NCBI GenBank assembly: GCA_963701965.1
Contig: OY969695.1
Location: 2,880,001-2,944,000, forward strand
Source: an uncultured Gemmatimonadales bacterium
Lineage (GTDB): Bacteria; Gemmatimonadota; Gemmatimonadetes; Gemmatimonadales; Gemmatimonadaceae
Length of the DNA: 64,000 bases
Reading direction: 5' to 3'
Position 1 is the stretch's first letter. Every line of letters starts with the position of its first letter. The notes beneath the pieces are model-generated. The model was not told the origin of the DNA, did not search any database, and saw only the letters and a program-made list of their open reading frames with translations. Both the position numbers and the translations under genes were made by a program. Shown in pieces: positions 4,542-28,586 of this stretch.

Positions 4542-4625
4542 TCGACAGACGCTGCGTCAAACGAGGCATGGTCGATTCGCCGCGATGCGGCACCGTATGG
4601 GACCCTTTCACTCGTGGAGAGTCCT

Positions 4626-6960: not shown

Positions 6961-7148
6961 CGTTCCGGGAAGGGGCGAGTCGCGCCTGTGATTGCCCATC
7001 AATGGGTCGGCGACGGAGCCGGCCGAGTCTCCACGGGGAGAAATGCATTGTCGTCCGGGAGCAGATTCGGCGTTGACGTAGCGATTGGCATCGACCACTG
7101 TGTATCATCCGTGCGCTGATGCTATTTCACGTCTGCCCTCTGCAACCC

Positions 7149-10340: not shown

Positions 10341-13300
10341 ATGCCAAACGCCGGCCTACGCCTAACACTCGGCGTCCTTTTTGTCACGTTCCTATCTGAC
10401 GCGACAGCGCAACCAGCGAACCAAGTCGTCCAAACGTCCTTCCTCGGGGAAACATCCGTCACCGGTGCCGGAGGAACGCTAGATCGACTGATCGATTTGG
10501 ACCTAAGAGCGGTATCCAGACGCGAGGCACTGTTGCGTATCGGAACCGCGGGCGGCGTGACGATCGGAATCAGGGTGCCTTCCGATCGTAATCTGACCGA
10601 GCCTGTTTCTCTCTACGCTCGATCCCTCACGGTCCGTGCGGCTCTCAACGCAATTCTCAAGGGGACAGGTCTTGGCGCCGAGCTGATCGGCGTCCGCGAC
10701 ATCATCATATCGGCAGATTCGGGGCGCGTTCTCACAGATCCAGACGCGTTCGGCATGATTCGTGGCAGTGTACGAGACCGCCGTACCAACGAGCAATTAG
10801 CTGGTGTCGTTGTGCGCATACGAGGGACATCGAGTCACGCGACCTCCGGTCTAGATGGGCGGTATCAGATTGGCCGCGTCATTGGGGGCGATTTGCGCGT
10901 CGAGGCCCGGCGGCTCGGTTATGCACCCGCGACGATTGCCATATCTCTGCACCCTGGCGACACTGCCACGGTGGATTTTCTTCTCAGTCCCTCCGCATAT
11001 CAACTCGACCAAGTAGTCACCACGATCACCGGTGATGCGCCGCTCTTGCAGCTCGGCAATTCCATAGGAACCATTCGCGCTGATAGCGTCGCTGCGACTC
11101 AGCCTGTCACCGATTTGTCCGACATCATCAATGCTCGCGTTCCGGGGGTGCAGGTCATTCTGAACGGTGGGCTGACGGGCGCATCGCCACAAATCAACAT
11201 TCGTGGACAAAACAGTGCGCAGCTCTCGAATCAGCCTCTGTTGTACATCGACGGCGCGCGCGTTGACAACAGCGTCAGCAACGGAGTTGGCAGCGGTCGG
11301 TCGAACGACATCAGTCCCGATGAAATTGAGTCCATTGAGATCGTCAAGGGTCCATCCGCCGCGACTCTGTACGGGACAGACGCTGCAAACGGCGTCATCG
11401 TCGTGCGGACCAAGCGAGGTGCTTCGGGGCGCCGTCTCTGGAGCGCTTACGCGGAATCGGGAACGATCACCCTCGACCGTGACCGTTTTCCAGAGAGCTA
11501 CTATCCCTGGGGAACGACCGTTGGCGGCGCACCCGCTGTCGGTCAATGCACGTTGCAGACCGGTGTCGCCACGGGTGCGTGTACCATCGATAGCGTAACG
11601 CGCTACTCACCGCTGAGGAATCTGGCCACGACGCCAATTGGCACTGGCCAAAGGCAAGCATATGGGTTGCAGCTTAGCGGCGGCGGATCGGACATGCGGT
11701 ACTTTCTTTCCGGTGCGTTCGACGACGAGACGGGTTATCTTAAGCTCCCGACCTCCGATCGGGACGCGTTTGCGGCGGAGCGCGGCGCGGACGGCTTTAG
11801 TCAAGACGACCTGCATCCCAACGGCTTGCAGCGTGCGAGCGCGCGAGAGAATGTCACCGCATCGCTGGGTCGCGATGCCGATCTTACGCTCTCTTCAAGC
11901 TTTTTAACGCAGAATTCCCGAATCCCGAATTCGCAGGTCATTGAGTTCGGTGTTTTCGGTCCTGGGTATCAAGACAGCACGGGCGGTTGGGCTCTGGGGC
12001 TGCGCCCCGCGTATTACATGCTGTCTCGAAACGATGAATCTGTCGATCATTTTACGGGTAGCGCGACGTCGAACTGGCGTCCTGCCTCCTGGCTTACCAC
12101 TCGAGCGACGGCAGGACTCGACTTCTCACTCGACTACTTGAATCAGCTCACTCGCGCCGGCGAGGGACTGCCAGGAGCGACCCAGGGTTCGCGCAACAGT
12201 TCGAAGACATCCAATACGCTTAACAGCATCGATCTCGGTGCGACGGCGTCGTTTGACTTAGCGCAATCCTTCACGTCCCGAACGTCCGTCGGTGCTCAGT
12301 ACAATCGTTCGACCTTACTGGTAACCGGCGCCGGAGCAACAAGTCTCTTACCGGGGGGAGTCGACGTATTTAGCGGAAGTACGCAATCCGCTGCCGAAGA
12401 GACGGTTGAAACCGTCGTTGCCGGTGCCTATGTCGAGCAGACGTTCGCCCTCAACGAACGACTATTCGTCACGGGGGCGGTGCGTGCCGACGGCTCTGGG
12501 AGCTTCGGGTCGGATTTTCAAACGGCGTACTATCCCAAGGGGAGTCTGTCCTGGCTGATCTCGCGTGAGTCGTTCTGGCCCGCAATTCCAGGCCTCAGTA
12601 ATCTGCGATTGCGCGCGGCGTACGGTGAAGCCGGAATCCAGCCTAGCCCGACAGCACGCCTTGCGAGAGAAGGGTACGTACAATCAATCACTGACGGCTC
12701 GCAGCAAGTTGGTGCGATTCTAACCAATGGTGCCAACCCGAATCTGAAGCCAGAGTTTCAACGCGAGTTCGAAGGCGGCTTTGATGCTGGATTCCTTGGT
12801 GGTCGAATTAATGTTGAACTCACGTACTATCAGAAGCACAGCACAGACGCGCTGAGTACTGTGCCACTGGGTCCGTCTATTGGGGGCCCATTTGGGTTCG
12901 AGACAATCAACGTGGGTTCTGTTAATAATCTGGGCTATGAAGCGCTGGTCAATGTCGTCGTTTTAAAATCACGCGACCTGGCCTTAGATCTTACAGCCAA
13001 CGGCTCGATCAATCACAACAAGCTTGTCCGTCTTGAATCGGGAGTCGTTGCTGGACTACCCGCCACGGGTGCGGCCACCAATGTTGCCGGGTATCCTGTT
13101 TCCTCGCTCTTTGACTACCCTATCACCCGCTTTTCCGACGCGAACCACAATGGGATCATCGACCCGTCTGAGATCACGCTCGGATCGTCACCTGTGTTTA
13201 TGGGTCAGACCTATCCCAAGACGCAGTTGACGGTGGGAGGCACGGTCGGTCTCCTGAATAACCACGTTCGCCTGAACGCCCAGCTCGACTATCGCGGTGG

Positions 13301-13688
13301 GTTCGTCATTCTCAATCAAGCCGCCGAATTCGGCTGTCTTCTAGGCTTCTGTAGAGCTACCAGTGTCGTAGGGAGCGATCTCCGCGACCAAGCGGCGGCG
13401 AGCGCCATTTTCACGGGACCCGGGAGTGCCGTTGGATACTATCAAGACGGCTCTTTCACGCGGTTGCGCGAAGTGTCGGTGACCTTCTCCATTCCCGACG
13501 GCATCGCGCGGCGACTACGTACCCGCACGCTTAGCGTGACGCTCGCTGGGCGAAACCTGGCACTGTGGACCAAGTACACGGGTCCCGACCCCGAGGTCAG
13601 CACCGCGGTCGGCGATCACTCATTTAATGATCAAGGGGCCGTACCGCCTGGGACGTACTGGATCGCTCGCGTCAACCTTGGTCTGTAG
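10341..13688 (+). CDS. SusC/RagA-family TonB-dependent receptor with N-terminal STN-like signalling domain
   Basis: Signal peptide, STN-like segment (VSLYARSLTVRAALNAILKGTGL), carboxypeptidase-regulatory-like domain, SusC plug signature DISPDEIESIEIVKGPSAATLYGTDAANGVIVVRTKRG, NPNLKPE and C-terminal ARVNLGL. Confidence 0.95.
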   Translation: MPNAGLRLTLGVLFVTFLSDATAQPANQVVQTSFLGETSVTGAGGTLDRLIDLDLRAVSRREALLRIGTAGGVTIGIRVPSDRNLTEPVSLYARSLTVRAALNAILKGTGLGAELIGVRDIIISADSGRVLTDPDAFGMIRGSVRDRRTNEQLAGVVVRIRGTSSHATSGLDGRYQIGRVIGGDLRVEARRLGYAPATIAISLHPGDTATVDFLLSPSAYQLDQVVTTITGDAPLLQLGNSIGTIRADSVAATQPVTDLSDIINARVPGVQVILNGGLTGASPQINIRGQNSAQLSNQPLLYIDGARVDNSVSNGVGSGRSNDISPDEIESIEIVKGPSAATLYGTDAANGVIVVRTKRGASGRRLWSAYAESGTITLDRDRFPESYYPWGTTVGGAPAVGQCTLQTGVATGACTIDSVTRYSPLRNLATTPIGTGQRQAYGLQLSGGGSDMRYFLSGAFDDETGYLKLPTSDRDAFAAERGADGFSQDDLHPNGLQRASARENVTASLGRDADLTLSSSFLTQNSRIPNSQVIEFGVFGPGYQDSTGGWALGLRPAYYMLSRNDESVDHFTGSATSNWRPASWLTTRATAGLDFSLDYLNQLTRAGEGLPGATQGSRNSSKTSNTLNSIDLGATASFDLAQSFTSRTSVGAQYNRSTLLVTGAGATSLLPGGVDVFSGSTQSAAEETVETVVAGAYVEQTFALNERLFVTGAVRADGSGSFGSDFQTAYYPKGSLSWLISRESFWPAIPGLSNLRLRAAYGEAGIQPSPTARLAREGYVQSITDGSQQVGAILTNGANPNLKPEFQREFEGGFDAGFLGGRINVELTYYQKHSTDALSTVPLGPSIGGPFGFETINVGSVNNLGYEALVNVVVLKSRDLALDLTANGSINHNKLVRLESGVVAGLPATGAATNVAGYPVSSLFDYPITRFSDANHNGIIDPSEITLGSSPVFMGQTYPKTQLTVGGTVGLLNNHVRLNAQLDYRGGFVILNQAAEFGCLLGFCRATSVVGSDLRDQAAASAIFTGPGSAVGYYQDGSFTRLREVSVTFSIPDGIARRLRTRTLSVTLAGRNLALWTKYTGPDPEVSTAVGDHSFNDQGAVPPGTYWIARVNLGL

Positions 13689-13825
13689 AGCAATTGCCGC
13701 GGTGCGTGCTCAACGCTCCGCGTTGCTCGTTACCAACGAATCCCGTCGCAATGGGCGAGTGACCCCCAATCATGTGGTGGCACTCTTCACACAGTGGAAC
13801 CATCTCCTCTAACGGATATCGCGGC

Positions 13826-15121
13826 ATGATCGCACACTTTTGGATTCGCGTAAGCAGGTCACGCGGACGTGCCTCGGCGGCGCTAATGGTCATAGCCATC
13901 TTGGCCGGCTGCGACATAACTCACGTGGCATCGCCAAATGTGGTTACTCCGAGTCAATTTCAAAACGACACGGGTGCGCTCACGCTGCGTGCGGGAGCAA
14001 TTGCCGCCTTTGCTCAGGCATACAGCGACCAGATCGTAATGGCCGGCCTATTGTCGGATGAACTCACCGATCTCACAGGCAGTTTTAAGGCGGATCAGAG
14101 AATAATCGCGACCAACGGGAGCTTGGGGTCGAACTATCCTTATGATGAACTGAGTGGCGCGCGAATCAACGCGCTTTTGGCAATTCATGCGTTGGAACTG
14201 TATAGTCCATCTTCACGTCCTCAGATAGCCGAACTATTTGCGTATCTTGGGAATGTTGAGGTGTTCTTCGCCGAGAACATGTGCTCTGGGGTTCCTCTCG
14301 GAGTACTCGTTGCTGGCAATCCGAGCTATGGAAAGACCTTGTCGCGCCAGCAGTTGCTACAGCGAGCACTGGCTGATCTCGACTCTGCCTCACACTTCTC
14401 GGCCGCAAACGATTCCATAGCTAATCTTGCTCGGATTGCCCGCGCTCGTGCCTTGCTCGACTCGAACCTCGATCTTGCCAGTCGAGCCGCTCAAGTTGCG
14501 GATTCGGTGGGTGAGGGATTCGCTTACAGTACATCGTACGGCAATATCCCGAATCAACAGAACACGGTGTTTGGGGCGTTGAACTTGCGGGGTGTCGCAT
14601 CACTATCCGACCGCGAAGGTATCAATGGTCTGGATTTCATTAGCGCAAACGACCCAAGAGTGCCGCGCGACAGCCTTGGACCTGGAAGGTTTGGGATACT
14701 CAGCGATTCCAGTGTAAGCGCGCCGATCAAGCTCGCGAGTTGGATCGAGGCTCGACTCATTCGGGCTGAGGCCGATCTTCACGCTGGCAATGCGTCGGCT
14801 TGGCTAGCAGATCTCAATGCCTTGCGTGGCGACTCTGCCACCACTGGAGTTCCCGGTCTAATGCCGCTGGCAGATCCCGGCTCCAGCAATGCGCGCATAG
14901 ACCTCATGTTCCGTGAGCGTGCATTCTGGCTGTTCGGGTCCGGCCACCGACAGGGTGACTTACGACGCCTCGTCAGGCAATACAAGAGGCAAACGGAATC
15001 CGTGTTTCCTACGGGGCAATATCGGAATGGACCACAGCGGTACGGTACGGACGTCGTATTTGTACCGTTCGGCGAATCGAATAATCCAAACTTCGCGGGA
15101 TGCTTCGATCGTCTTCCGTAG
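13826..15121 (+). CDS. SusD/RagB-family surface lipoprotein
   Basis: Lipobox ILAGC and SusD C-terminal motifs EARLIRAEA and RERAFWLFGSGHRQGDLRR; directly after SusC. Start 13826 preferred over 13772. Confidence 0.9.
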   Translation: MIAHFWIRVSRSRGRASAALMVIAILAGCDITHVASPNVVTPSQFQNDTGALTLRAGAIAAFAQAYSDQIVMAGLLSDELTDLTGSFKADQRIIATNGSLGSNYPYDELSGARINALLAIHALELYSPSSRPQIAELFAYLGNVEVFFAENMCSGVPLGVLVAGNPSYGKTLSRQQLLQRALADLDSASHFSAANDSIANLARIARARALLDSNLDLASRAAQVADSVGEGFAYSTSYGNIPNQQNTVFGALNLRGVASLSDREGINGLDFISANDPRVPRDSLGPGRFGILSDSSVSAPIKLASWIEARLIRAEADLHAGNASAWLADLNALRGDSATTGVPGLMPLADPGSSNARIDLMFRERAFWLFGSGHRQGDLRRLVRQYKRQTESVFPTGQYRNGPQRYGTDVVFVPFGESNNPNFAGCFDRLP

Positions 15122-15133
15122 AACCCCCATCAA

Positions 15134-17752
15134 ATGCGCTGCAAAGTGTTTGGGTCCTATCTGATATTGGCGGGCTGCTCAATGCAAGCATTGGGCGCGC
15201 AGTCGTCGCTTGGTACCAGCCATCCAACAACCATAGAGGATCTTCTCGTACAAGAGCAGGTCAGCCAAATCGCTCCTTCTCCGGACGGGCGCTGGATTGC
15301 CGTAGTTGTGGACCGAGCGAGGACAGCGAGCGAGTTCTACAGGTCATATAGCAATGACGTGCATGAACGGGGTGACGTGTGGCTGTTCGCTGTTAACGAC
15401 ACGGCCGGCCGCAATCTGACACATGGAGCCGCTCGAGGTGCTGGCTATTGGAGTCCCGTGTGGTCAGCCAGCGGTGATCGAATAGCAATGCTGTCCACCG
15501 AAGGGCGAGACAATGTTCGACTGTTGGTCTGGAGACTGTCCGACAATAGTCTCTCGCGTCTAAGTGATCGCGGTGTGGACCTTAATGCAGATTTCGGAGA
15601 GGGCGGCGGCATACCTCGCCGTTTCCAGTGGTTGGGTGACACAGCAATAGCTTTTGTCGCACTCCCCCCGGGTGAGGCGCCGATCACCTATGGCTACCTC
15701 ACGCAAATGCAGCGCGCCGCTACAACAATGTGGCCAATGGCGGAGCGAGGCGAATTGCCGACGCGCCGTGTATTCAATGTCGGCCCAGGCGCACCACCTC
15801 CTCCAGTGCCTTCGGCCCAATTGTTCGTGGTAGGTGTCTCCAATTCACGACTACGCTCTACTGGAACGTTCCCAGTGGTTGGCCTGGAACAACATCAGAT
15901 TGCCATGTCGCCCACGGGCCGCGCTGTAGCGGTCATTACACAGACTGCGTCCTATACACCAGACCGCTACCCCGTCACAGACAGTCGTGGCTTGGGCACA
16001 TGGCGACTTGGTGTTGCCCGATTGGATTCGTCCGAAGCAATACACTGGAGTTCAATCAATGTCCGGAAGCGCTCCTTCGATACACGGCAAATACGGCCAC
16101 GATGGTCAAGTGATGAGCGGTCCGTTGCGGCTATTGGCTACTCAAACGAAGCCGACAGCGCATCCGGTGTGGCGTATCTCATCTCTGCTTCGACTGGTAA
16201 AGCCGCGCGGCTCACGCCGGATAGTGAGGACGTCTCCGATCTAAGGTGGTCACCCGCTGGCTTCCTCGCTTACGCTGGAGTGCGAGCTCGCGGTTCGTTC
16301 GGGATGAGGATGCCGTCAGGCGCCGATTCATTGGTTGTCCCGACGCGTCGAGACTGGCTGCTAGTTCGCTCCGACAATGCGCGACCGACAAACATTACGT
16401 GGACGTTCGCGAACGTGTCACGCGACCTGCTGGTGTCTCGTGTCGGTGCGCAAGTGTACTTAGCTTCTGCTGGCGCGCTCTGGGCTATTGATCTCAACAC
16501 CGCCCACGCTCGTCGACTGACAGATACGTCAGTGTTCATGGCACAATCCATCCTGTGGCCTGACCCGACGACCGAGCGTGCGGGTTCAATACGCGAAGTC
16601 GTTGCGAGTACTCATTCGCGACTCCGGGTCGACGATCCAAGGCTGGTGTCGACTTTCACACGTGCGTCGGCGCCCGATGGCGTATGGTGTGTTGACGTGT
16701 CAGTCGGCCTGAACTCTGGCGCGGATCGTCCCGTGCTCATGCCGACGTCGGATGCAATCTTTCGCGATTTCATTCCCGCGAACCGTACTGCCGTCGTGAC
16801 CGCCGACCGTTGGGCCGGACAGCAAACTGTTTGGATTTCCGACATTTACCGAGCGCGCGTTGACACCGTGTTGTCCCTCAATCGCGAAGCGAACGCCCTA
16901 ATCGGGGCGCGCCGGATGTCGATCACCTATCTAGGCGCGGATGGCGATAGCTTGGGCGGCACGATTACGCTGCCCGTAAATTATGTCGCCGGCAGACGTT
17001 ACCCCCTCGTCGTAGACGTCTATGGCGGTACGTCTGCTGGTTCTGCCGATACGGTGGCGGAGTCGCCGAATCTCCTGGCAGCTCACGGATATGCGGTGCT
17101 CACTCCAAGTATGCCCTTGTCACATGCCGGCGAAATGTCCGACCCGTATATCGACATGCCTAAAGGCGTCATCGGCGCCGTCGACAAGGCAATCGCTATA
17201 GGGGTAGCTGACCCGGCGCGACTAGCACTCTTTGGTCACAGCTACGGCGGCTACAGCGTAATGTCGATACTGGCCTATACGCATCGCTTCCAAACGGCCA
17301 TTTCCTATGCGGGATTTGCCGATCTACTAAGTCTCTACGGCACACTCTCAGCCCCGTACCGTTATACATCTCAGGCTGCAGACGCGACGTTATTTCCGTG
17401 GTATTTGACTGAGGGAGGGGGAGCTCGCATGGGAGCTCCACCATGGTCCGACATGTGGCGCTATTGGCGCAATAGTCCCATCAGCTATCTGGACCGAATT
17501 CGCACGCCACTGCTCCTCATACATGGCGATGTCGATCCTAACGTACCGGTTGGACAAGCTGAGGAAGTTTTTAGCGGTTTGTACCGGCTCGGTGGAAGGG
17601 TGCGTTTCATTCAGTATAGCGGCGAAGGTCACGGTATAAATTCGCCTGCGAATATGCGCGACTTTTGGCACGAGGTCTTTGGCTGGCTCGACTCATTCCT
17701 GCTACCGAAAGCCACGTTGCAAGGCAAGGATTCGCACTTGGGCACGTCGTGA
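15134..17752 (+). CDS. S9 prolyl-oligopeptidase-family serine hydrolase (candidate lasso isopeptidase)
   Basis: Signal peptide, propeller-like repeats (SPDGRWIA, PVWSASGDRIA) and an intact triad: GHSYGG, HGDVDPNVP, GEGHG. Confidence 0.9.
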   Translation: MRCKVFGSYLILAGCSMQALGAQSSLGTSHPTTIEDLLVQEQVSQIAPSPDGRWIAVVVDRARTASEFYRSYSNDVHERGDVWLFAVNDTAGRNLTHGAARGAGYWSPVWSASGDRIAMLSTEGRDNVRLLVWRLSDNSLSRLSDRGVDLNADFGEGGGIPRRFQWLGDTAIAFVALPPGEAPITYGYLTQMQRAATTMWPMAERGELPTRRVFNVGPGAPPPPVPSAQLFVVGVSNSRLRSTGTFPVVGLEQHQIAMSPTGRAVAVITQTASYTPDRYPVTDSRGLGTWRLGVARLDSSEAIHWSSINVRKRSFDTRQIRPRWSSDERSVAAIGYSNEADSASGVAYLISASTGKAARLTPDSEDVSDLRWSPAGFLAYAGVRARGSFGMRMPSGADSLVVPTRRDWLLVRSDNARPTNITWTFANVSRDLLVSRVGAQVYLASAGALWAIDLNTAHARRLTDTSVFMAQSILWPDPTTERAGSIREVVASTHSRLRVDDPRLVSTFTRASAPDGVWCVDVSVGLNSGADRPVLMPTSDAIFRDFIPANRTAVVTADRWAGQQTVWISDIYRARVDTVLSLNREANALIGARRMSITYLGADGDSLGGTITLPVNYVAGRRYPLVVDVYGGTSAGSADTVAESPNLLAAHGYAVLTPSMPLSHAGEMSDPYIDMPKGVIGAVDKAIAIGVADPARLALFGHSYGGYSVMSILAYTHRFQTAISYAGFADLLSLYGTLSAPYRYTSQAADATLFPWYLTEGGGARMGAPPWSDMWRYWRNSPISYLDRIRTPLLLIHGDVDPNVPVGQAEEVFSGLYRLGGRVRFIQYSGEGHGINSPANMRDFWHEVFGWLDSFLLPKATLQGKDSHLGTS

Positions 17753-17880: not shown

Positions 17881-18063
17881 TTACGATCCCACTGTCGTGT
17901 CAGGCGCTTCCACGTCGTCTTCGAACGTCATGCCCGGCGGATTATCGACATAAACCCGAGCTGTAAGGCTACCTACCTCATGGCTCATCGAGAAAGGCCC
18001 ACCGAGCGTTCGCTTGCATGCAGATCCGTGGTCGGTAATGTGAGGTGCCACGTAGGCTCGCAA
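17881..18063 (-). CDS. Lasso peptide precursor A2 (60 aa)
   Basis: TTG start inferred by alignment to A1. Leader MRAYVAPHITDHGSACKRTL has YxxP and Thr(-2). Core GGPFSMSHEVGSLTARVYVDNPPGMTFEDDVEAPDTTVGS has Gly1/Glu9. Confidence 0.85.
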   Translation of the reverse strand: MRAYVAPHITDHGSACKRTLGGPFSMSHEVGSLTARVYVDNPPGMTFEDDVEAPDTTVGS

Positions 18064-18155
18064 AACCCTCTGTTCTTGGTTTAGTCCTCGCCGATCGACT
18101 GTTTGCTTCACGCGTCCGATTCTCCCAGGGGTATATAAGGTCAGTTCGGGCAATG

Positions 18156-18219
18156 CGTGATCGCCGACTGCAGTAGTGGGATCTGGCCAAGGTTTGTTCA
18201 CCTGCAATCGGCGATCACG
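18156..18219 (-). terminator. Stem-loop between the two precursor genes
   Basis: 18-bp arms CGTGATCGCCGACTGCAG (18156-18173) and CTGCAATCGGCGATCACG (18202-18219). The single mismatch is a G:U pair on the minus-strand transcript. No U-tract. Confidence 0.55.
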
Positions 18220-18245
18220 TCCGCGCTAGCTTAGGTTCTGCGAGA

Positions 18246-18428
18246 TTACGATCCCACGGTCGTATCAGCCGCCTGAACGCCGTTCTCGAGCGTCATGCCC
18301 GGCGGGCTGTCAACATCGGCATGTCCCGTCAGGCTACCGGTTTCATGCGTCTGGCTAGCCAGGGATCCGAAAGTCTTGGCGACCACGCTGCCATGGTCGG
18401 TAAACCGGGGAGAATTGTACGCCTTCAT
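18246..18428 (-). CDS. Lasso peptide precursor A1 (60 aa)
   Basis: GGAGGT RBS. Leader MKAYNSPRFTDHGSVVAKTF has YxxP and Thr(-2). Core GSLASQTHETGSLTGHADVDSPPGMTLENGVQAADTTVGS has Gly1/Glu9. Confidence 0.92.
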   Translation of the reverse strand: MKAYNSPRFTDHGSVVAKTFGSLASQTHETGSLTGHADVDSPPGMTLENGVQAADTTVGS

Positions 18429-18469
18429 GTTACACCTCCGTGCCGAAAATTGTGATTTGCCGTCCACTA

Positions 18470-20320
18470 CTAGGCGGCTTGAGGGGTGGCCGCACGCGGC
18501 GGCCAGAGGCCAGATCTCACTTGAAGCCAGGTTTCCAAAGACAGCGCTGCGTAAAGGCGAATGACCGACGTTCCTCGACCGCGGCGAACGAGCGACATAG
18601 CGCCCCGCAGCTTGTCCCTTTGAATGCATCCGAGCTGAGCAAGAACAGGGTCTTTCAACATCGCCTTCAACTTCGACCGCTCCGCCGTAAGCGCCCAACG
18701 GGTACGTGCTCCGAGCGTTCCCTTGCCGACGCGATTTCGCACGCGATCCGGCAGTTCGCTGCCAAGAGCCTGTCGTAGAACCAGCTTTGTGACTCCCGGC
18801 TGCGCTATGAATTCCGGATTTAGACCGAGACAAAATTCGACCAACGGCCGATACAGGAACGGGTATCTAAGATCCACGTAGTGTTCGAAGGGTTCTCTCT
18901 CGATGAACGAAGGGAGTGCTTCGATTTGCCAGGCGAGCTCGCCATTGCCATAGCCGTCCGCACATTCCTCGTACCGACGCAGTCGCGACCGCCGGTCTGC
19001 GATCGCATATTGCTTCTCAAAACGGGGCTCCAGCCATGCAGGGAGCCCGCGCCGCGGCGGAATCAGCTTTCGGCGTAGCACCTGCGGAAGAAGAGGCTGT
19101 ATGGCGCATGCATACGCCAGACGCCAAAACGACGTGTGTGTGGTCGTTGCACGGCGCGCCATTGCGTCAATGGCGCGAAGAATCCGGCCGCCTGCAATGA
19201 GGTCGGTGATGAACCCAAGGTTCCCCGTCAGGTAGTGATCTGACCCGTATCCGCTCAGGAGCACTCTCCCCCCAGATTCTCGGACGATCCTACACATCTC
19301 TTGATCCCGCGCGTAGTACGGATACATCAGGCGTGGCTGATCAGTAATCGGCAGCCTCGTGGCATCTTCCCGCCACGGCCAGTAGTCGGCGATTCGTGCA
19401 TTGGGTATCTCGTACATACGCAGTACTTCGCGCACAAAATCGCTTTCATCGCCGCTACCGAGTGAATCAACGATCGTAACGGTACCCGCGAGGCCTGACG
19501 ATGCTCTACCCGCGCGATGAAGTCGCTCGGCCGCCGCGACGATGGATGACGAATCCAATCCTCCAGACAACTGCGCCCAGGTGCGCCCCTGACCTTCTAT
19601 GCGCGCCCCCACCGCCTCATCGAGGAGTAGCCGCAGCTGTTCTGCCGCCATCTCCGCGGACAGGCAATCGGTGCCACTCCATACGAGATCTCGTGCCCGC
19701 CAAAAATATTCGATACGGATGCCACGGGCCGACGCGACTAACATTGCGCCCGCCGGCACGGCACTCACCCCCCGATAAATGGTCCGCTCGGAAGTGACAC
19801 ACCCGTGGACTAGGAAATCGGCAATGTATTCGTAATCCACCTCGTCATCCGCCGCGATCAGTGATGCATGTGTCGATAGCCATATGCCGTTAGTCGTCGT
19901 GCGGTAGTAGAGAGGGGCCACCCCGAAGCAATCCCGCGCAGCGACGACTTCTTGTCGCCCCGGACGCCATGTCACGATCGCAAAATCCCCAGTTATAGCG
20001 CGCATGGCAGCGGCGCCGTTAAGCAGCGACTGGGCAGCGCACATCATGTCGCGTTCCCCCTTCTCGTGGCCGCTGTCAATGTCGACGAGGCTCGGCGCAT
20101 CGAGCCGTGCCATACCAACACTCACAGCGTCGTCGCTACCGACCGTCGACACTCTCGGCGTTGCCTCGTTGTGGCTGTCAATGTAAGCGGCAAAGCCGCC
20201 ACCGGTCATCCATGTGCCCTTGCCGGCAGCAATCCTCGAGTGACGCAATGCCACAATGTGGCGCTCATCGTGCGATAGGGTTCGGCCATCATAGTTGATG
20301 GCGCACACAAAGGCGCTCAT
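18470..20320 (-). CDS. Lasso cyclase (C protein, asparagine-synthetase-like)
   Basis: AARDCFGVAPLYY, LSGGLDSSSI, LSGYGSD, RYPFLYRPLVEF; ATGA-coupled to B2. Confidence 0.93.
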   Translation of the reverse strand: MSAFVCAINYDGRTLSHDERHIVALRHSRIAAGKGTWMTGGGFAAYIDSHNEATPRVSTVGSDDAVSVGMARLDAPSLVDIDSGHEKGERDMMCAAQSLLNGAAAMRAITGDFAIVTWRPGRQEVVAARDCFGVAPLYYRTTTNGIWLSTHASLIAADDEVDYEYIADFLVHGCVTSERTIYRGVSAVPAGAMLVASARGIRIEYFWRARDLVWSGTDCLSAEMAAEQLRLLLDEAVGARIEGQGRTWAQLSGGLDSSSIVAAAERLHRAGRASSGLAGTVTIVDSLGSGDESDFVREVLRMYEIPNARIADYWPWREDATRLPITDQPRLMYPYYARDQEMCRIVRESGGRVLLSGYGSDHYLTGNLGFITDLIAGGRILRAIDAMARRATTTHTSFWRLAYACAIQPLLPQVLRRKLIPPRRGLPAWLEPRFEKQYAIADRRSRLRRYEECADGYGNGELAWQIEALPSFIEREPFEHYVDLRYPFLYRPLVEFCLGLNPEFIAQPGVTKLVLRQALGSELPDRVRNRVGKGTLGARTRWALTAERSKLKAMLKDPVLAQLGCIQRDKLRGAMSLVRRGRGTSVIRLYAALSLETWLQVRSGLWPPRAATPQAA

Positions 20321-20757
20321 AGCGTCGGCAACGGCAACTGAGCCAACCCGCGCGTAATTTCGCCAGTCTCATTAAGCGGCGCCCCATTGTACTCAACCCA
20401 CGCGTGCGCCGTGAAGCCGTACGGCTGCACCCCCAGGCGAAAGACAGAGTCCACTCCGCTCCGCCGAAGCAGGTGATGCAGTGTCAGCGACTGCTCCAGA
20501 CAGTACGCGCGACCGGGAAAGAATGCACCTGCGACCGCCACTTTCCGTACTATTTCGGTGAGCACCGTCGTCTCGACGCACTGTCGTGGGCGCACCGTGG
20601 CGCATAGTGCATTACTAAGTCTCATCGTCCGACCGAGGCCGCCAACGCGCAATGCAAGCTTGATCCAGATAAGCGTCACTACGCAGGTCATGGTACCGGG
20701 TACCGCTAAACGTCTGCCAGTCATGGCAGCTTGAGATCGGTCATCGTGTGCGCGCAT
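20317..20757 (-). CDS. Lasso leader peptidase (B2, transglutaminase-like)
   Basis: YCLEQSL (catalytic Cys) and LGVQPYGFTAHAWVE (catalytic His). ATG at 20757 overlaps the B1 stop (TGATG). Confidence 0.93.
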   Translation of the reverse strand: MRAHDDRSQAAMTGRRLAVPGTMTCVVTLIWIKLALRVGGLGRTMRLSNALCATVRPRQCVETTVLTEIVRKVAVAGAFFPGRAYCLEQSLTLHHLLRRSGVDSVFRLGVQPYGFTAHAWVEYNGAPLNETGEITRGLAQLPLPTL

Positions 20758-21056
20758 CAGACGGCTACGAGCTGTGACTGATAGAGATCTAGCAAAAGCG
20801 TCACCACGTCCCGTTCGAGACGTTCGCGAGGCACGTCGTAATTCGGTGCTAACTGGTCGACGATAGCTGCCACCGTGTGATACTGCTCGAGCAACGACCA
20901 CACATCACCACCGATTTCGTTGAGGGAGTAGTACCGACTCCGCTTCACGTCAAGAAGCACTGTGGCTTGGCCATGCCGAGTGAAAATGATATGCCTATGT
21001 GCTGAGATAGTGGCGGATAGCCGAATGGTTGCGTCGTTCGCAGATCGCTGGGGCAT
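20757..21056 (-). CDS. Lasso RRE (B1, PqqD-family)
   Basis: TVLLDVKRSRYYSLNEIGGDVWSLL...YDVPRERLERDV is a typical PqqD pattern. Start 21056 gives 99 aa; the track ORF extends to 21179. Confidence 0.92.
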   Translation of the reverse strand: MPQRSANDATIRLSATISAHRHIIFTRHGQATVLLDVKRSRYYSLNEIGGDVWSLLEQYHTVAAIVDQLAPNYDVPRERLERDVVTLLLDLYQSQLVAV

Positions 21057-21309
21057 ACGCCTTACCGGGATGATGGAACGCGCTGTCATCGACACGTGCG
21101 CGAACGTTACGCCACCATGCGTTGGGACGATAGCGTCGGTACGGGCCAGATACCTCCGTGACAGGCTGACAGCACGCATCGCTCATTGAGTCACGAATAC
21201 ACGTACGGTCTATCCTGTCTTTACGACGCTAGGACGAGAACGTGGTGATCGCACGACCCACGGCGCCTCAGAGCGATCGGCACCGCCACACTCTACGTAG
21301 GAGATACGA

Positions 21310-22209
21310 ATGTCTTTGGCGGACTATGCCGTCGGGAAGATTCTGAGCGGCAGATATCGCATCCTCGAACATAGGGCAGGTGGTGGGCAGGCAATCGTGC
21401 TCCGTGTGGAGCACACCTTCCTGCACCGCCAGCTGGCGATGAAAATTGCCAGACGGCGGATCAGCGTTGGCCCACCGCGAATCCTCGAGGAGGCTGAGAC
21501 TCTAGCCGCGATAAATCATCCTGGCATCCCCGCAATCGTCAATGCAGGGGTATTGGCAGACGATCGTCCCTACCTGGTCTCGGAATGGATTGATGGCCGG
21601 TCGCTCGCTGAATTAGCCGCCGTGCACGCCTGTAGCCCGCGTGCCGCTGTTCAAACCATGGCTGCCTTGAGCGCCATTGTTGGCGATTTGCATGCGCTGG
21701 GCGTTCTACATCGTGACCTGAAACCAGCGAACATCCTGATACCTATGAACGGGGAGCACCCAGAGTATGCAACCCCCAAGCTGATTGACTTCGGCGTTTG
21801 TGACACTCTAAATGTCGACGTCGCCGGCGGAGTGCGCACAACTGGCAGCGGACGCACCAGTGGCACGGCGCTCTACAGCGCGCCGGAACAGATCGCTGGA
21901 CGGCGTCAATCAATGACGACCGACGTATTCGGTCTGGGTGCAATCCTGTTCGAGTTGCTGTGCGGCCATCCTCCGCTCGCTCCCACCGGGGAGGTGTCAC
22001 TGTTCGAGCTGGATTGCGGAGGTGAAAAGATGGCAATTCCCGTCGCAGTCAATCGACTTATCGCCAATGTGCCGGTACCGGAGATTGCGGGCGTGCCAAC
22101 CAGTGTTCGCGAAATTGTTCAACAGTGCCTGCGCAACGAACCAGAGGGACGCCCACAATCCGCCGCTGAAGTGGCGGTGACGCTGCAAGGCGCGTTAGCG
22201 ACGTGGTAG
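21310..22209 (+). CDS. Hanks-type Ser/Thr protein kinase (stand-alone catalytic domain)
   Basis: AGGAG RBS; GGGQAIV, AMK, HRDLKPAN, DFG, GTALYSAPE and DVFGLG are all intact; no TM segment. Confidence 0.93.
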   Translation: MSLADYAVGKILSGRYRILEHRAGGGQAIVLRVEHTFLHRQLAMKIARRRISVGPPRILEEAETLAAINHPGIPAIVNAGVLADDRPYLVSEWIDGRSLAELAAVHACSPRAAVQTMAALSAIVGDLHALGVLHRDLKPANILIPMNGEHPEYATPKLIDFGVCDTLNVDVAGGVRTTGSGRTSGTALYSAPEQIAGRRQSMTTDVFGLGAILFELLCGHPPLAPTGEVSLFELDCGGEKMAIPVAVNRLIANVPVPEIAGVPTSVREIVQQCLRNEPEGRPQSAAEVAVTLQGALATW

Positions 22210-22361: not shown

Positions 22362-24254
22362 TCAGCGGTATCCGGCAGCCTGCATCGAGAAGAGTTCACT
22401 GTAGAGCCCTCCCCGACCGAGCAAATCAGTGTGGGTGCCATGATCTGCAATGCAGCCACCCTGAAGCACGATGATCCGGTCCGCCATTCGCACAGTGGAG
22501 AATCGATGCGAAATGAGAACGGCGGTGCGCGCCGTCGCGAGTTCCGAGAAGCGACTGAACACCTCATATTCGGCGCGTGCATCAAGCGCTGAAGTCGGTT
22601 CATCTAATATGAGAACTTGGGCTTGACGCATGTACGCGCGTGCGATCGCGACCTTCTGCCACTCGCCTCCGGACAAGTCTATGCCCCCATCAAAACGACG
22701 TCCGAGAACTTGGCGATAACCGGCGGGTAACTGCGTTAGCAGAGACGATGCCAGGGAACGTTCGGCCGCCCTCGCAATTGCAGGATGCACCGGGTGCTTC
22801 AAATCACCCTTGAGATCGTCGAGCTCATCGAAATGATTGCGAGACGCCTCGATTTCTCCGACGCCAATGTTTTCGTCAAACCGAAAATCGTAACGAACAA
22901 AGTCTTGAAAAATGACGCCAATCGCGCGACGCAGCGATGCGATGTCGTATTCGCGGAGATCAACGCCATCAAGGAAAATCCGACCTTCGGTCGGGTCATA
23001 GAGTCGCGTCAGCAGTTTTGTGAGAGTCGTCTTGCCTGCGCCGTTCTCGCCTACGAGAGCGATGCGTTCACCGACACCCAGCGCCAGGTCAATGTGCCGT
23101 ACGGCCCATCGCTCACTGTTGTGGTAGCGGAACCCGACATCCTGAAAAACGAAGCCTTCGTGAATGTGGGCCGGTACCAGGACGGCGTTGTGCCGGGCAG
23201 CGATAGTCGGACGAATCTCGAAGTAAAGAAAGAGATCGCGGAGATACAGTGTTTGTTCGTAGATGTCACGCCCCGTCTGGAGAATGCTCGCGATGTACGA
23301 ACGACTGCCGGAGAAAGACGAAGCCAGGAAGGTTAAAGCGCCAATGGTTATGCGGCCGCGCATCGCATCTACGAGGATAAACACATAGGCGACGTAGTAT
23401 CCAAGAGTGCCCAAGATTGGCAGGGCACCACTGATGAAGGCGCGCTGAACCGCCAACGCCTTGTTTTCCTCGTAAAATTGCTGCGAAAGGCGCCGAAAAC
23501 GATCAGTCAGCCAGGGTGCGAGACCAAACATCTGCACTTCTTTGGCAGAGCGATCGCTGGACCCCACATAACGAAGATACTCGAGCATGCGCCGTCCTTC
23601 GGTGCGGCCGAAGAACAAGGAGTAGGCTCGGCGACTGTAGTGCGTCTCGCCGAGAAAACTTGGAAGGATGGCTAGCACCAGCAGTGCCAGCAGCCACGGG
23701 TTGAACGCAACGATCGCCCCACTCAAGCTGAGCAGCGTCAGCGCATACTGCGCGATGCTAAGGAGCTGGCCGAGTAGGCCAAGCCGCGCGGTCGAGTTTT
23801 GCCGCGCACGCTCGAGCAGGTCGTAAAACTCCGGATTCTCAAACTGCGCGAGATCGAGCGTCGCCGCGTGCTCCATGATGCGCACACTGACGTGGTTCGT
23901 GAACAGATCCCCAAGCAAAACCTCGACCAACGTCGACGCTCGCGAGATCGCCTGATCCGCGACGACGATCGAGATCTCGATCGCCACCAGCGTCCACAAG
24001 TGATGCCAATCCGGCCCCCGGAGCCGCGCCTTCACCACCGCGTCGATGATGAGCTTGGCCACCCACATCGTGGCGAGCGGCGTCGCGGCGCGCACGATGC
24101 GCAGTACCATCATCGCCACCGTGAGCGGCCAGCTCGTCTCCCAGATGAGCGCGATGAACTTGGGAACGTAGCGGAGCGCCGAGATACGCTCGCGAAGCTT
24201 GGGCGGCTCCTTGGTCGTGCCGGCGCCGGCGCCGTTGCCGTTGTGCGTCGCCAT
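22362..24254 (-). CDS. ABC exporter, fused TMD + ATPase
   Basis: N-terminal TM helices, Walker A GENGAGKTT, signature LSGGEWQ, Walker B ILDEP, ISHR. Confidence 0.95.
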   Translation of the reverse strand: MATHNGNGAGAGTTKEPPKLRERISALRYVPKFIALIWETSWPLTVAMMVLRIVRAATPLATMWVAKLIIDAVVKARLRGPDWHHLWTLVAIEISIVVADQAISRASTLVEVLLGDLFTNHVSVRIMEHAATLDLAQFENPEFYDLLERARQNSTARLGLLGQLLSIAQYALTLLSLSGAIVAFNPWLLALLVLAILPSFLGETHYSRRAYSLFFGRTEGRRMLEYLRYVGSSDRSAKEVQMFGLAPWLTDRFRRLSQQFYEENKALAVQRAFISGALPILGTLGYYVAYVFILVDAMRGRITIGALTFLASSFSGSRSYIASILQTGRDIYEQTLYLRDLFLYFEIRPTIAARHNAVLVPAHIHEGFVFQDVGFRYHNSERWAVRHIDLALGVGERIALVGENGAGKTTLTKLLTRLYDPTEGRIFLDGVDLREYDIASLRRAIGVIFQDFVRYDFRFDENIGVGEIEASRNHFDELDDLKGDLKHPVHPAIARAAERSLASSLLTQLPAGYRQVLGRRFDGGIDLSGGEWQKVAIARAYMRQAQVLILDEPTSALDARAEYEVFSRFSELATARTAVLISHRFSTVRMADRIIVLQGGCIADHGTHTDLLGRGGLYSELFSMQAAGYR

Positions 24255-24260
24255 GCGCGG

Positions 24261-24461
24261 TCAGTGGTGCGTGGCGAGCGACACGGGATCGCTAGAGTGG
24301 AGACCCATCCGCCCCGTCTCGTGACGCCCGTGCCGGTGCCCGCTCCGGTACACCGTGCACAGGGGGTCCACCACGAGCGACCACGTGTACGCGGCGGCGA
24401 TCACGGTAGCGGTAGACAAGACCACGAGGCGCAAACGAAACGACATGACGGTGAGCTCCAC
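24261..24461 (-). CDS. Small hypothetical membrane/secreted peptide
   Basis: Hydrophobic N-terminus and His-rich tail; stop lies 6 nt before the ABC start, same strand. Confidence 0.4.
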   Translation of the reverse strand: MELTVMSFRLRLVVLSTATVIAAAYTWSLVVDPLCTVYRSGHRHGRHETGRMGLHSSDPVSLATHH

Positions 24462-24531
24462 TCACCGCAACGTACGAAACCTCGCCCGCCCGGGATACGA
24501 ACCACCGGGCGAATCGCGGCCGCCTAGTGCG

Positions 24532-25347
24532 CTACCACCGCTCCGGAGGATCCGGCGGATCGTCCAGGTGCAGATCCGAGATCGCGCGCCGCGCGTGAGT
24601 ATCCGGACGCACCCACCCCCACAACATCTTCCGCTTGATGTCCTCGAGCGGCGAGATCATCGTCCACCCGTCCCCGGTCTTCTCGATCAGCTTCGACTCG
24701 TCGGGGTGATGCAGCTTCGCCTTGATGTTCCGAAAAACGCCGGTATACTCGCGACTCGTCGGCGACACACGCCCGCCGAAGTACGCGTCGATCAACGTGT
24801 CGTTCTTCACGCTCTTGCCGTTCACGATCAGCAAGTGGAACAGGACGTCGAGCTCCTTGCCGACGACCCGGAACGTGCGGTTGCCGCGATGCACGACGCC
24901 CGAGCGCAAGTTGATCTTGATCTCGCCGATCTCGACGATCGGCTCGCCCGGCGGCTCCGGCTTGGCCGACCCCTTGAGAAACCCCACGACCTGACGCTCC
25001 AACTGCTCGGCGTCGAACGGCTTCTCGATCAACGACAGACCAAGCTCGATCCGGTCCAGATCCACGAGCTCCGCGGGATAGCCCGTCATCAACAACACCG
25101 GCATCGTGCTGCCGCTCTTCCGCATGATCCGGTAGACGTCGATGCCCCTCACATTTGGCAAGAACACATCGAGCAACAACATTGCCGGCGCCGGGATCGT
25201 CAGCACCGCCCGCAAACACCGCGGCGCATCCAACGCCATGCGCACGTGGTACCCGGCCTCGCGCAACGTTCGATCGGCCAATGCCAGGACCGCGGGCGCG
25301 TCCTCGCATACCACAATCGTCGATTCCGCCGTCGATGAACCAACCAT
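24532..25347 (-). CDS. OmpR-like response regulator
   Basis: Receiver (IVVCED, LLLDVFLP, MTG, EKPF) followed by a winged-helix-like domain. Confidence 0.8.
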   Translation of the reverse strand: MVGSSTAESTIVVCEDAPAVLALADRTLREAGYHVRMALDAPRCLRAVLTIPAPAMLLLDVFLPNVRGIDVYRIMRKSGSTMPVLLMTGYPAELVDLDRIELGLSLIEKPFDAEQLERQVVGFLKGSAKPEPPGEPIVEIGEIKINLRSGVVHRGNRTFRVVGKELDVLFHLLIVNGKSVKNDTLIDAYFGGRVSPTSREYTGVFRNIKAKLHHPDESKLIEKTGDGWTMISPLEDIKRKMLWGWVRPDTHARRAISDLHLDDPPDPPERW

Positions 25348-26054: not shown

Positions 26055-27086
26055 CTAACGCGCCGCCGCAGACGGCGCCGTCCCGTACGGCTCGTCGAAC
26101 ACGAGATCCCGCGCCACCAACACCACGAATGACGTCCCGCCCCGCACCGTGATCACCGGCGTGAGTTGGGCGTCGGCGCGCAACATCTCGAGCGTCCGCT
26201 CGGAGATCTGCTCGCCGAACGATCCCGCCACGACCTGGCCCGCGCTCGGCGTCGTATAGGGCGCGCCCGCGCCGGCGTTGGGTTGACTCAACTGCCCCGC
26301 CGCGCCGACCAGCGACAATAGCGCGGCGTCGATATACGCGTGGGCGATATGCGTGTCCACCGCGCCGCGCAGCCCGGCCGTCCCGCTCTCGTCGCCGGCT
26401 TCGAATCCCGGCAGCGCCATCGAACGCCCATCAGGAAAAAGGAGACGCGTCCATACCACGAGCAACGCGTCCTCCCCGCGGCCCACCTGCGTGTCGTAGC
26501 GCCCAATGAGACGGGAGCCGCGCGGCACCAATACCCAACGCTGGCGCGGCGTGTCGTACACGTCGCGCGTGACTTGGGCGACAACCTGACCGGGTATCGT
26601 CGAACGGATCTCGGTCACGAGCGCAACGGACACCACGGTGCCGGTCTGCACGGTGTACGGTGAATCCAACGCGTGCACGCTCGACGACGTGTCCAACCGC
26701 TCGGCCGCGGACAAGAACTGCGCGTGGGGCGCGGTCGATGGCGGCGCGTCGGACGCCGGCGCTCTCTCGCGCGCCGTGCGTACCAACGGTGCGCTCACTA
26801 ATGCGCGGGTGTACGACGTTGGTACGGGTTGGGGAAGTGGGGCGCTCATGATACTGGATACCGGGCGCACCGCAACGCGATGCGAGGTATCGGGAGTGGG
26901 ACTGGGAAACGATGGACGCTGCGCGGCCACGGGCCGCGGCGCCGTGGGATGGTCGGGCGCCACGGGACGCACCGCCGACCACAGAACGACACACGCGGTA
27001 ACGCCGGCAACGATCGCCGCGGCGAGCAGCGCGGTGTGATTGAGACGCGCGGGCTTGGGCGGGGTCGGTCGATAGGCCGAGCTCAC
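26055..27086 (-). CDS. trbI: T4SS TrbI/VirB10
   Basis: TM plus Pro-rich linker; TEIRSTIPGQVVAQVTRDVYD, VPRGSRLIGRY, VVWTRLLFPDG. Confidence 0.92.
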   Translation of the reverse strand: MSSAYRPTPPKPARLNHTALLAAAIVAGVTACVVLWSAVRPVAPDHPTAPRPVAAQRPSFPSPTPDTSHRVAVRPVSSIMSAPLPQPVPTSYTRALVSAPLVRTARERAPASDAPPSTAPHAQFLSAAERLDTSSSVHALDSPYTVQTGTVVSVALVTEIRSTIPGQVVAQVTRDVYDTPRQRWVLVPRGSRLIGRYDTQVGRGEDALLVVWTRLLFPDGRSMALPGFEAGDESGTAGLRGAVDTHIAHAYIDAALLSLVGAAGQLSQPNAGAGAPYTTPSAGQVVAGSFGEQISERTLEMLRADAQLTPVITVRGGTSFVVLVARDLVFDEPYGTAPSAAAR

Positions 27087-27092
27087 GATGCA

Positions 27093-28579: not shown

Positions 28580-28586
28580 GGTTGCC

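Follow-up and report, generated by a model that had tools for sequence, protein, structure and literature searches.

The longest lasso peptides characterized so far are pandonodin, with 33 amino acids (aa) and an 18-aa tail, and achromonodin-1, with 30 aa and a 20-aa loop, according to a June 2026 review (PMC13352647); lasso sequences predicted by RODEO range from 12 to 160 aa, in contrast to 14–33 aa in solved structures (PMC12214591). In clusters of the paeninodin type, the linear precursor has a conserved C-terminal Ser that is phosphorylated by kinases of the PadeK type, and the proteobacterial isopeptidase clusters carry sigma/anti-sigma genes in addition to their other components (PMC9266682). 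The gene order B1-(kinase)-B2-C-A1-A2 has been published for Acidobacterial soil clusters, for which expression in E. coli was attempted (PMC9064862). Here, we report a gene cluster in a 64,000-nucleotide stretch of DNA from an uncultured Gemmatimonadales bacterium (assembly GCA_963701965.1, contig OY969695.1, positions 2,880,001–2,944,000 of the forward strand; hereafter the window). Five genes on the minus strand at 17881–21179 of the window, B1, B2, C, A1, and A2, make up, on their sequence features, a real split-B lasso peptide gene cluster, and the two encoded precursors are, as predicted peptides, members of a small uncharacterized family with cores of 37–62 aa. Across the clade, lasso cyclases are linked to one subfamily of S9 serine peptidases and to TonB-dependent transporters. 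We consider it probable that the leader is cut from the precursors and a Gly1–Glu9 ring is closed round a constrained tail of 31 residues, and that the kinase, the ABC transporter, the SusC/SusD pair, and the S9 peptidase encoded nearby tailor, export, recapture, and cleave the product.

Core enzymes and long-core precursors

The five genes, all on the minus strand, are given below in the order of transcription (nt, nucleotides; RiPP, a peptide synthesized by ribosomes and modified after translation).

20757–21056, minus strand: B1, PqqD-type RiPP recognition element, 99 aa from the ATG at 21056, with an open frame to 21179
20317–20757, minus strand: B2, transglutaminase-like leader peptidase, 146 aa
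18470–20320, minus strand: C, asparagine-synthetase-like lasso cyclase, 616 aa, with an SGGLDSS PP-loop
18246–18428, minus strand: A1, predicted precursor with a 20-aa leader and a 40-aa core (Gly1, Glu9), ATG start, GGAGG (18435–18439) 6 nt upstream
17881–18063, minus strand: A2, predicted precursor with a 20-aa leader and a 40-aa core (Gly1, Glu9), TTG start, GAGGG 2 nt upstream

B1 matches the Pfam family PqqD (PF05402) with 69.2 bits and an E-value of 3.9e-19 (cut-off 23.4), and C matches Asn_synthase (PF00733) with 104.3 bits (cut-off 21). B2 matches Transglut_core3 with 67.4 bits and, in addition, the curated lasso B2 model NF033537 with 75.1 bits, passing its cut-off of 33. Among the three enzymes only B2 clears a curated lasso cut-off, B1 and C matching at the family level; the top NCBIfam models for C are lasso or macrolactam cyclases, all under cut-off. 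We therefore assign C to the lasso cyclases from its family match together with its context. Cyclases of relatives that have lasso precursors downstream are 33–41% identical to C. An earlier note on this DNA had claimed that B1-B2-C are translationally coupled, and the overlaps bear it out: the B1 stop and the B2 ATG share one base (TGATG), and the B2 stop overlaps the ATG of C (ATGA).

A1 starts 41 nt past the C stop and A2 starts 182 nt past A1, both being the 3′ ends of longer mechanical open reading frames (ORFs) of 195 and 108 aa; A1 is present in the public protein collection as a called 60-aa protein. Both precursors carry Tyr-17, Pro-14, Phe/Ile-12, and Thr-2 in the leader and Gly1 and Glu9 in the core, i.e., they have the YxxPxL-type leader, the Thr-2, the small first core residue, and the Asp/Glu at position 7–9 that are typical of split-B precursors. 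By hand count on the alignment, A1 and A2 are identical at 34/60 positions over the whole peptide, at 24/40 in the core, and at just 1/6 of ring positions 2–7, while GSLT, PPGMT, and DTTVGS are unchanged and both peptides end with Ser. Every element of the earlier description of two 60-aa tandem genes inside longer ORFs was thus found in the sequence; the 20-aa leader, the 40-aa core, Gly1 and Glu9, the 24/40 identity, and the fixed tail motifs were all reproduced, and so was the mostly variable ring.

The nucleotide identity of A1 and A2 is 59% within the coding sequences versus 23% over the 60 nt upstream, indicating that the start codons mark where the homology begins. Divergence at synonymous sites is close to saturation (proportion of synonymous differences, pS, 0.71), so the two genes are old paralogs and not the result of a recent duplication. 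The tail (core residues 10–40) has a dN/dS of 0.20 at a pS of 0.56, a sign of purifying selection, and the ring is hypervariable (proportion of nonsynonymous differences, pN, 0.53); the tail is hence a constrained element rather than a spacer. The 182-nt spacer between A1 and A2 contains an 18-bp inverted repeat (18156–18173/18202–18219, minus strand; 28-nt loop, 94% complementary) without a U-tract, and the predicted RNA fold of the spacer (z = −2.94) was equaled by 0/200 shuffles. Judging from the repeat, the hairpin likely stabilizes or attenuates the transcript after A1. No terminator was found after A1 or A2 in a simple scan, and the fold of the 128-nt spacer between A2 and the S9 gene is no better than shuffles (z −0.88).

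Relatives of the precursors were searched for among 1.84 billion protein representatives with HMMER, first with a two-sequence profile made of A1 and A2 and then with a six-sequence profile. The former returned four short peptides (P0006–P0009), and the latter returned P0011–P0014, none of which is in that profile, with E-values of 1.2e-17 to 7.3e-7. Besides A1 and A2, the family has eight metagenome peptides and one partial, the core lengths of the eight being 37, 43, 49, 51, 53, 58, 59, and 62 aa as read off the alignment. M1, Y4, P7, D11, G13, Thr-2, Gly1, and Glu9 are invariant in 10/10 members, all of which begin with M-x-x-Y, and a mid-tail xGxT[F/L/Y]E as well as a C-terminal (E/T)T-x-G are almost fixed. 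With these eight lasso-defining residues recurring in independent relatives, the similarity of A1 and A2 is beyond chance. The N-terminus of A2, MRAY, is the same as that of P0006. Genomic context was seen for one of the metagenome relatives: on the 1016-bp contig L042, the end of a cyclase (47% identity to the window cyclase across 133 aa) is followed by a 79-aa precursor, coupled to it by ATGA, and then by a second precursor. P0002–P0005 and P0010 are long repeat proteins that match in many stretches, and they were set aside as presumed low-complexity matches.

The stringent, degenerate DNA pattern Y-x2-P-x2-T-D-[HRQ]-G-x4-[RS]-T-x-G-x7-E was found at 0 places in 185,579 species genomes and on one metagenome contig; in six-frame precursor searches, neither 61 relatives nor 401 genomes of the phylum yielded a convincing match outside the window (best other E-values 0.01 and 4.6e-4); a word-index search of the protein collection with A1 returned A1 alone; and a cyclase pattern search of genome contigs gave 174 pattern matches with 0 confirmed. 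The protein atlas offered one weak lead, a 'lasso RiPP leader' cluster with a score of 0.87.

In every locus of the clade where precursors were found, they come after C, usually as 2–5 tandem copies that vary in the ring and are conserved at their ends, as in the following loci.

L044: three precursors, cores of 32, 32, and 36 aa
L049: three precursors, cores of 31–32 aa
L048: two precursors, cores of 25 and 27 aa
L051: three precursors, cores of 21–22 aa
L047: two precursors, cores of 22 and 23 aa
L052: five precursors at 11620–12703
L054: four precursors at 11281–12059

The arrays of L052 and L054 have a common leader, MKKTY.TP.VTASDVVRATE, and are flanked by the cyclase on one side and by a full-length, convergent S9 orthologue on the other. 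All three precursors of L049 end with ASASPDNT. About 1 kb past the three precursors of L044 (genome G003) lies an IS21-type element (rve integrase plus IstB; 11299–13211), and in L053 (G003:C5; 9428–11036) the cyclase match falls into two adjoining pieces (query 64–237 and 239–601), which may represent a frameshifted or broken copy.

Since the precursor-last order is common in this clade and has been published for Acidobacteria (PMC9064862), the architecture itself is not new, and the hint in the earlier note that precursors after enzymes are unusual has to be dropped. What is uncharacterized is the length and, above all, the conserved tail. The predicted cores do exceed the characterized lasso peptides, as had been claimed (40 aa versus the 33-aa record; PMC13352647), and if untrimmed they would be the longest lasso peptides known. 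A new long-tailed lasso family had also been claimed. The relatives bear out the long-tailed family, with cores up to 62 aa, and a lasso cluster with an uncharacterized long-core family stands; its novelty is reduced by long predicted cores already contained in RODEO sets (PMC12214591). The further suggestion of the earlier note, that the variable ring serves specificity, goes beyond what the sequence shows.

S9 peptidase and TonB-dependent transporters beside the cyclases

Past the 3′ end of A2, on the opposite strand, three genes form one plus strand operon that converges on A2.

10341–13688, plus strand: SusC-type TonB-dependent outer-membrane transporter, 1115 aa, with the Pfam domains Plug, TonB_dep_Rec, and CarboxypepD_reg
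13772–15121, plus strand: SusD-like lipoprotein, 449 aa, lipobox ILAGC
15134–17752, plus strand: 872-aa serine peptidase of family S9 with the lipobox LILAGC, convergent on A2, Pfam Peptidase_S9 with 95.6 bits

The SusC gene scores 364.8 bits on TIGR04056 (cut-off 368.25) and 46.7 on the SusC signature TIGR04057 (cut-off 46.2), and copies of 43–47% identity stand beside the lasso clusters of L044, L048, L049, L051, and L065. The SusD-like protein matches Pfam SusD_RagB with an E-value of 4e-4 and 20.5 bits, under the cut-off of 23.1. Two structure models were made, with pLDDT (predicted local distance difference test) values of 57 for the SusD-like protein and 60 for the S9 peptidase, and fold searches with them confirm general folds only. 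The Foldseek matches of the SusD-like AlphaFold2 model, listed to rank 48, are all of SusD/RagB type or belong to SusCD-type complexes (TM about 0.43), RagAB (6sln) and ButCD (8ypt) among them. In three relatives the best SusD matches are the lasso-adjacent copies, i.e., the top 4 of 24, with 45–50% identity versus at most 41% for the others.

Among 61 relatives, an S9 gene adjoins the cyclase at 8 of the 15 strong cyclase loci, five of them also with SusD; at six others there is just a TonB-dependent receptor, and the last one is truncated at a contig end. In a family sample of 151 genomes, an S9-profile match lies on the same contig within about 3.5 kb at 16/22 cyclase loci, with tblastn adding a 17th, and the S9 gene is convergent on the cyclase in the 11 newly fetched loci of this sample. 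Three genomes flagged as unpublished (G012, G491, G431) enter the denominators of the counts for the 61 relatives and the 151 genomes only, and none of our conclusions depends on them. When the two samples are merged, S9 adjoins the cyclase at 19/28 loci; of the other nine, six have just a TonB-dependent receptor and three are truncated at contig ends. This adjacency spans many genera despite rearrangements. It is also specific for a subfamily: 17 of the 25 best S9-profile matches adjoin a cyclase, versus 0/125 of the weaker listed matches, and in a tree eight lasso-adjacent S9s split from six paralogs of their own genomes with 100/100 support. Isopeptidases and the paralogs of other genomes are not part of this tree. 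Of the S9 gene that converges on A2, a single full-length copy is present in the window genome.

One may argue that a SusC/SusD/S9 operon for scavenging peptides and a signaling kinase (described below) are ordinary neighbors without a tie to the lasso genes, given that the window genome has about a dozen SusD-like and 12 S9 matches, that the relatives have 12–23 kinase matches each, and that no curated family ties SusC, SusD, S9, or the kinase to lasso peptides. We regard this as improbable: the adjacency is kept at the 19/28 loci across rearranged genomes, the adjacent S9s form a subfamily of their own, and the adjacent copies are the best SusD and kinase matches in relatives. The gene order of L049 argues in the same direction. 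Seen from its cyclase, two of the three precursors lie beyond the SusC-SusD-S9-kinase block, about 11 kb away (3983–4600 and 15432), which places the block inside the lasso locus. Our literature search found, among the papers listed, no publication linking lasso peptides to SusD, as judged by title and abstract.

The S9 translation has GHSYGG, HGDVD, and GEGHG motifs, and its low-confidence model shows N-terminal beta strands followed by a C-terminal hydrolase domain. As far as such a model goes, the S9 protein therefore combines the beta-propeller/hydrolase layout, the triad motifs, and the adjacency to lasso genes and a TonB-dependent transporter that are found together in proteobacterial isopeptidase clusters.

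The window genome contains a second lasso locus, L043 (G000:C1:4333000–4350000), where B1, a cyclase, and a single precursor (19-aa core) precede an STN-domain TonB-dependent receptor, FecR, and an extracytoplasmic function (ECF) sigma factor, with no S9 gene; receptor, FecR, and ECF sigma factor are the regulatory set of proteobacterial isopeptidase clusters (PMC9266682).

Kinase, putative exporter, and the proposed pathway

On the other side of the lasso genes, three further genes come into consideration.

21310–22209, plus strand: 299-aa Ser/Thr kinase of the Hanks type, stand-alone and divergent from B1, Pfam Pkinase (PF00069) with 116.5 bits
22362–24254, minus strand: ABCB-type half transporter, 630 aa, Pfam ABC_tran with 111 bits plus ABC_membrane
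24532–25347, minus strand: response regulator upstream of the ABC gene, Pfam Response_reg with 50.9 bits, OmpR/PhoB-like by NCBIfam

Kinases were found at three lasso loci. All three have Lys45, HRD, and APE, and DFG is present in two, the copy of G003 having DFS. In five relatives with 12–23 kinase matches each, the top two of the 100 matches listed are the short lasso-adjacent kinases of G003 and G005, which stand between S9 and the lasso genes. At the three kinase-bearing loci, 7/8 precursors end with Ser or Thr, compared with 4/19 at kinase-free loci; the loci are related and few, so this correlation is a lead and not a test. We found no literature tying lasso peptides to Hanks-type kinases or Pkinase, again by title and abstract. 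The ABC transporter is MsbA-like by NCBIfam, its best solved relatives are MsbA and ABCB1, and homologues of its nucleotide-binding domain only are located upstream of B1 in L052, L054, L055, and L070. The response regulator is a possible regulator of the lasso cluster. The G+C content peaks locally at 0.68, versus 0.55–0.62 around it, at 24000–24500, a stretch that covers the ABC gene's 5′ end plus the spacer to the response regulator.

From known lasso pathways, B1 would bind the YxxPx[F/I] leader, which fits the [Y/W]xxPx[L/V/I/F/A] motif bound by lasso recognition elements (PMC13381572); B2 would cut after Thr-x, i.e., after the 20-residue leader; and C would adenylate Glu9 and close the nine-residue Gly1–Glu9 isopeptide ring around the tail. 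The following steps are suggested by genomic context. The cytoplasmic Hanks-type kinase might phosphorylate the Ser/Thr-rich tail on the linear precursor, most likely at the C-terminal Ser, a step that we put forward tentatively. The ABCB pump probably exports the product. We hold it likely that the link to SusC/SusD and the S9 lipoprotein is functional, with re-import and cleavage of the product, either at the isopeptide bond or by tail trimming. In these genes the tail, which the earlier note took for a modification or recognition handle, has candidate partners encoded nearby, namely the kinase of Hanks type, the putative SusC/SusD pair, and the S9 peptidase. In its boldest form, the proposal is that the family, with its 40–62-residue cores, is the first very-long-tailed class, in which the tail acts as an address label, the kinase tags the terminal Ser/Thr, a SusC/SusD 'utilisome' reserved for the peptide recognizes the label after export, and the S9 lipoprotein belonging to it opens or trims the product, in a secrete-and-recapture cycle, a shuttle or a signal, whose evolution ran parallel to that of the proteobacterial isopeptidase/TonB systems. 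As a complete picture this is speculative, and we think it unlikely that all of its parts hold.

Several points weigh against the pathway or single steps of it. B1 reaches 60.6 bits on the NCBIfam lasso_PqqD model NF033536, under the cut-off of 80, and C reaches 170 bits on the lasso cyclase model NF033535 (cut-off 525) and 135 bits on NF033561 (cut-off 300). A2 has a TTG start, and its ribosome-binding site is the weaker one since GAGGG lies merely 2 nt upstream. Concerning the kinase, it is present at 3/15 loci only, all in one genus, and the C-termini of the metagenome relatives are acidic, not Ser. The window ABC gene has no homologue at an E-value of 1e-5 in nine relative loci, those of SusC/SusD type included. 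The adjacency counts for S9 overstate independence because the loci are related to one another. As a candidate isopeptidase of the AtxE2 family, the S9 protein was rejected: it scores 84.9 bits on NF033523 against a cut-off of 400, with the match confined to the catalytic domain. The seven other lasso-adjacent S9s score 56–146 bits on that model, and six non-adjacent paralogs, at 133–187 bits, outscore the window S9. In the fold search with the low-confidence S9 model, the nearest solved relatives are S9 carboxypeptidases, SpI-IsoP standing at rank 37. The S9 protein failing the AtxE2 model and the paralogs scoring higher, we claim the functional link from context, whichever bond the enzyme would cleave.

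The sub-threshold scores of B1 and C would also suit a different product, i.e., a linear peptide, for example a phosphorylated one, that has a lasso-type leader without the lasso fold, or else a cluster that is inactive. Linear polyphosphorylated peptides of Bacillota indeed have a YxxP leader and long variable C-termini (PMC13381572). We consider this very improbable, for B2 and C are intact and translationally coupled, and Gly1 and Glu9, not needed in a linear peptide, are invariant in the family; moreover, the signal-peptidase type of leader peptidase of the linear polyphosphorylated peptides is not among the Pfam matches of the ORFs scanned at 5–32 kb of the window.

The S9 carboxypeptidases found in the fold search bear on the fate of the tail. 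A long tail might be a follower that is removed, leaving a mature lasso of 22–28 residues after a cut near acidic-x-Pro before xGxT[F/L/Y]E or after nibbling from the C-terminus, so that the conserved tail would only be of temporary use, as something for the kinase, the exporter, or a processing peptidase to hold on to. In 9/10 members a Pro comes before the conserved mid-tail motif, and in our reading of the alignment a cut there leaves 22–28 aa, the usual size of lasso peptides, in eight of them. The adjoining enzyme, S9, belongs to the prolyl-oligopeptidase family, and host carboxypeptidases are known to shorten lasso tails from the C-terminus (PMC13352647). On the other hand, conservation at the very C-terminus (DTTVGS here, ETxG in relatives) equals that of the mid-tail motif, which is unexpected of a part that is merely discarded; moreover, the S9 protein is predicted to be a lipoprotein located outside the cytoplasm, where it could trim the peptide only after export. 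We regard removal of the tail, the chief alternative to our reading, as less likely. Whether the mature product retains more than 33 residues is a nearly even question, on which the genomic context leaves us leaning slightly to the negative side.

About 1.8 kb past the ABC gene and its response regulator, a run of conjugation/type IV secretion genes (26055–32481, minus strand) encodes TrbI/VirB10, CagX/VirB9, VirB8, TrbL/VirB6, and VirB4, and the lasso locus may be located at the edge of an integrative conjugative element; no tRNA was found in the 64-kb window. Two more genes precede the SusC gene. A 428-aa tetratricopeptide repeat protein (7119–8405, plus strand) has homologues of 28–33% identity near the lasso clusters of L049, L045, L050, and L043, with a tblastn match in L053, and an ORF at 6115–6960 (plus strand) has a SIR2_2 domain (Pfam 1.5e-12), a family common in defense systems.

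Comparison with known systems

Pandonodin and achromonodin-1 are likewise lasso peptides with exceptionally long segments after the ring (PMC13352647). In comparison, the predicted window cores have 40 aa with 31 residues past the ring, and those predicted for the relatives have up to 62 aa; furthermore, the tail is conserved across the family, B1 and B2 are split, and the precursors come last. Since there is no Cys pair, the window peptides would be assigned to class II, not to class IV.

The paeninodin type (PadeK, ThcoK, SyanK, PsmK) shares with the window a kinase within the cluster and a hydroxyl residue at the end of the precursor (PMC9266682), and both A1 and A2 have the conserved C-terminal Ser of that type. 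The window kinase, however, is a Pkinase with HRD, DFG, and APE and does not have the HPr-kinase-like His-Lys-Asp-Asp signature described there; no HPrK-type family is among the Pfam and NCBIfam matches listed for it. The leader differs as well, being YxxP in the window and WxxP in paeninodin-like precursors (PMC13381572). Given the unrelated kinase family, such tailoring, if true, would be a case of convergent recruitment.

The proteobacterial isopeptidase clusters, i.e., those of the astexins, sphingopyxin I, and benenodin-1, likewise combine lasso genes with an S9 enzyme of beta-propeller/hydrolase layout and a TonB-dependent transporter, and the rubrinodin cluster likewise has an ABC exporter (PMC9266682). 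In contrast to them, the window S9 is about 200 residues longer, is a predicted lipoprotein, and falls short of the AtxE2 model; the transporter is a probable SusC/SusD pair; the precursors are long-tailed and in multiple copies; and neither GntR nor sigma/anti-sigma genes were seen beside the window cluster.

The Acidobacterial soil clusters 482.1 and 44.1, with the orders B1-(kinase)-B2-C-A1-A2 and D1-D2-B1-B2-C-A, come close in arrangement, the precursors being last and in tandem and a kinase being present in one of them (PMC9064862). They differ in their A genes of 141–150 nt (about 46–49 aa in total) and in the kinase, which is annotated as a member of the aminoglycoside-phosphotransferase family and located between B1 and B2, and the available part of that account lists no SusC, SusD, or S9 (PMC9064862).

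RagAB and other SusCD 'utilisomes' resemble the window operon, in which the genes for a SusC-type barrel, for a lipoprotein that would be the SusD lid, and for a predicted surface lipoprotein enzyme likewise stand together. To our knowledge, no SusCD-type importer has been described as dedicated to a lasso peptide. The role of the lasso 'isopeptidase clade' has been a standing question since 2013. The clade reported here repeats the logic of lasso genes, S9, and TonB-dependent uptake with other parts, i.e., SusC/SusD, a lipoprotein S9, and, in one genus, a Hanks-type kinase, and the same logic built with different parts argues that a produce-and-recapture design is selected in its own right; the clade also supplies new enzymes for testing that design. 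As for the precursors, a family with 40–62-residue cores, a variable ring, and a constrained tail is a test case for the tail length that the B/C machinery can thread and for the role of the tail, and it might serve as a scaffold on which long appended sequences are displayed.

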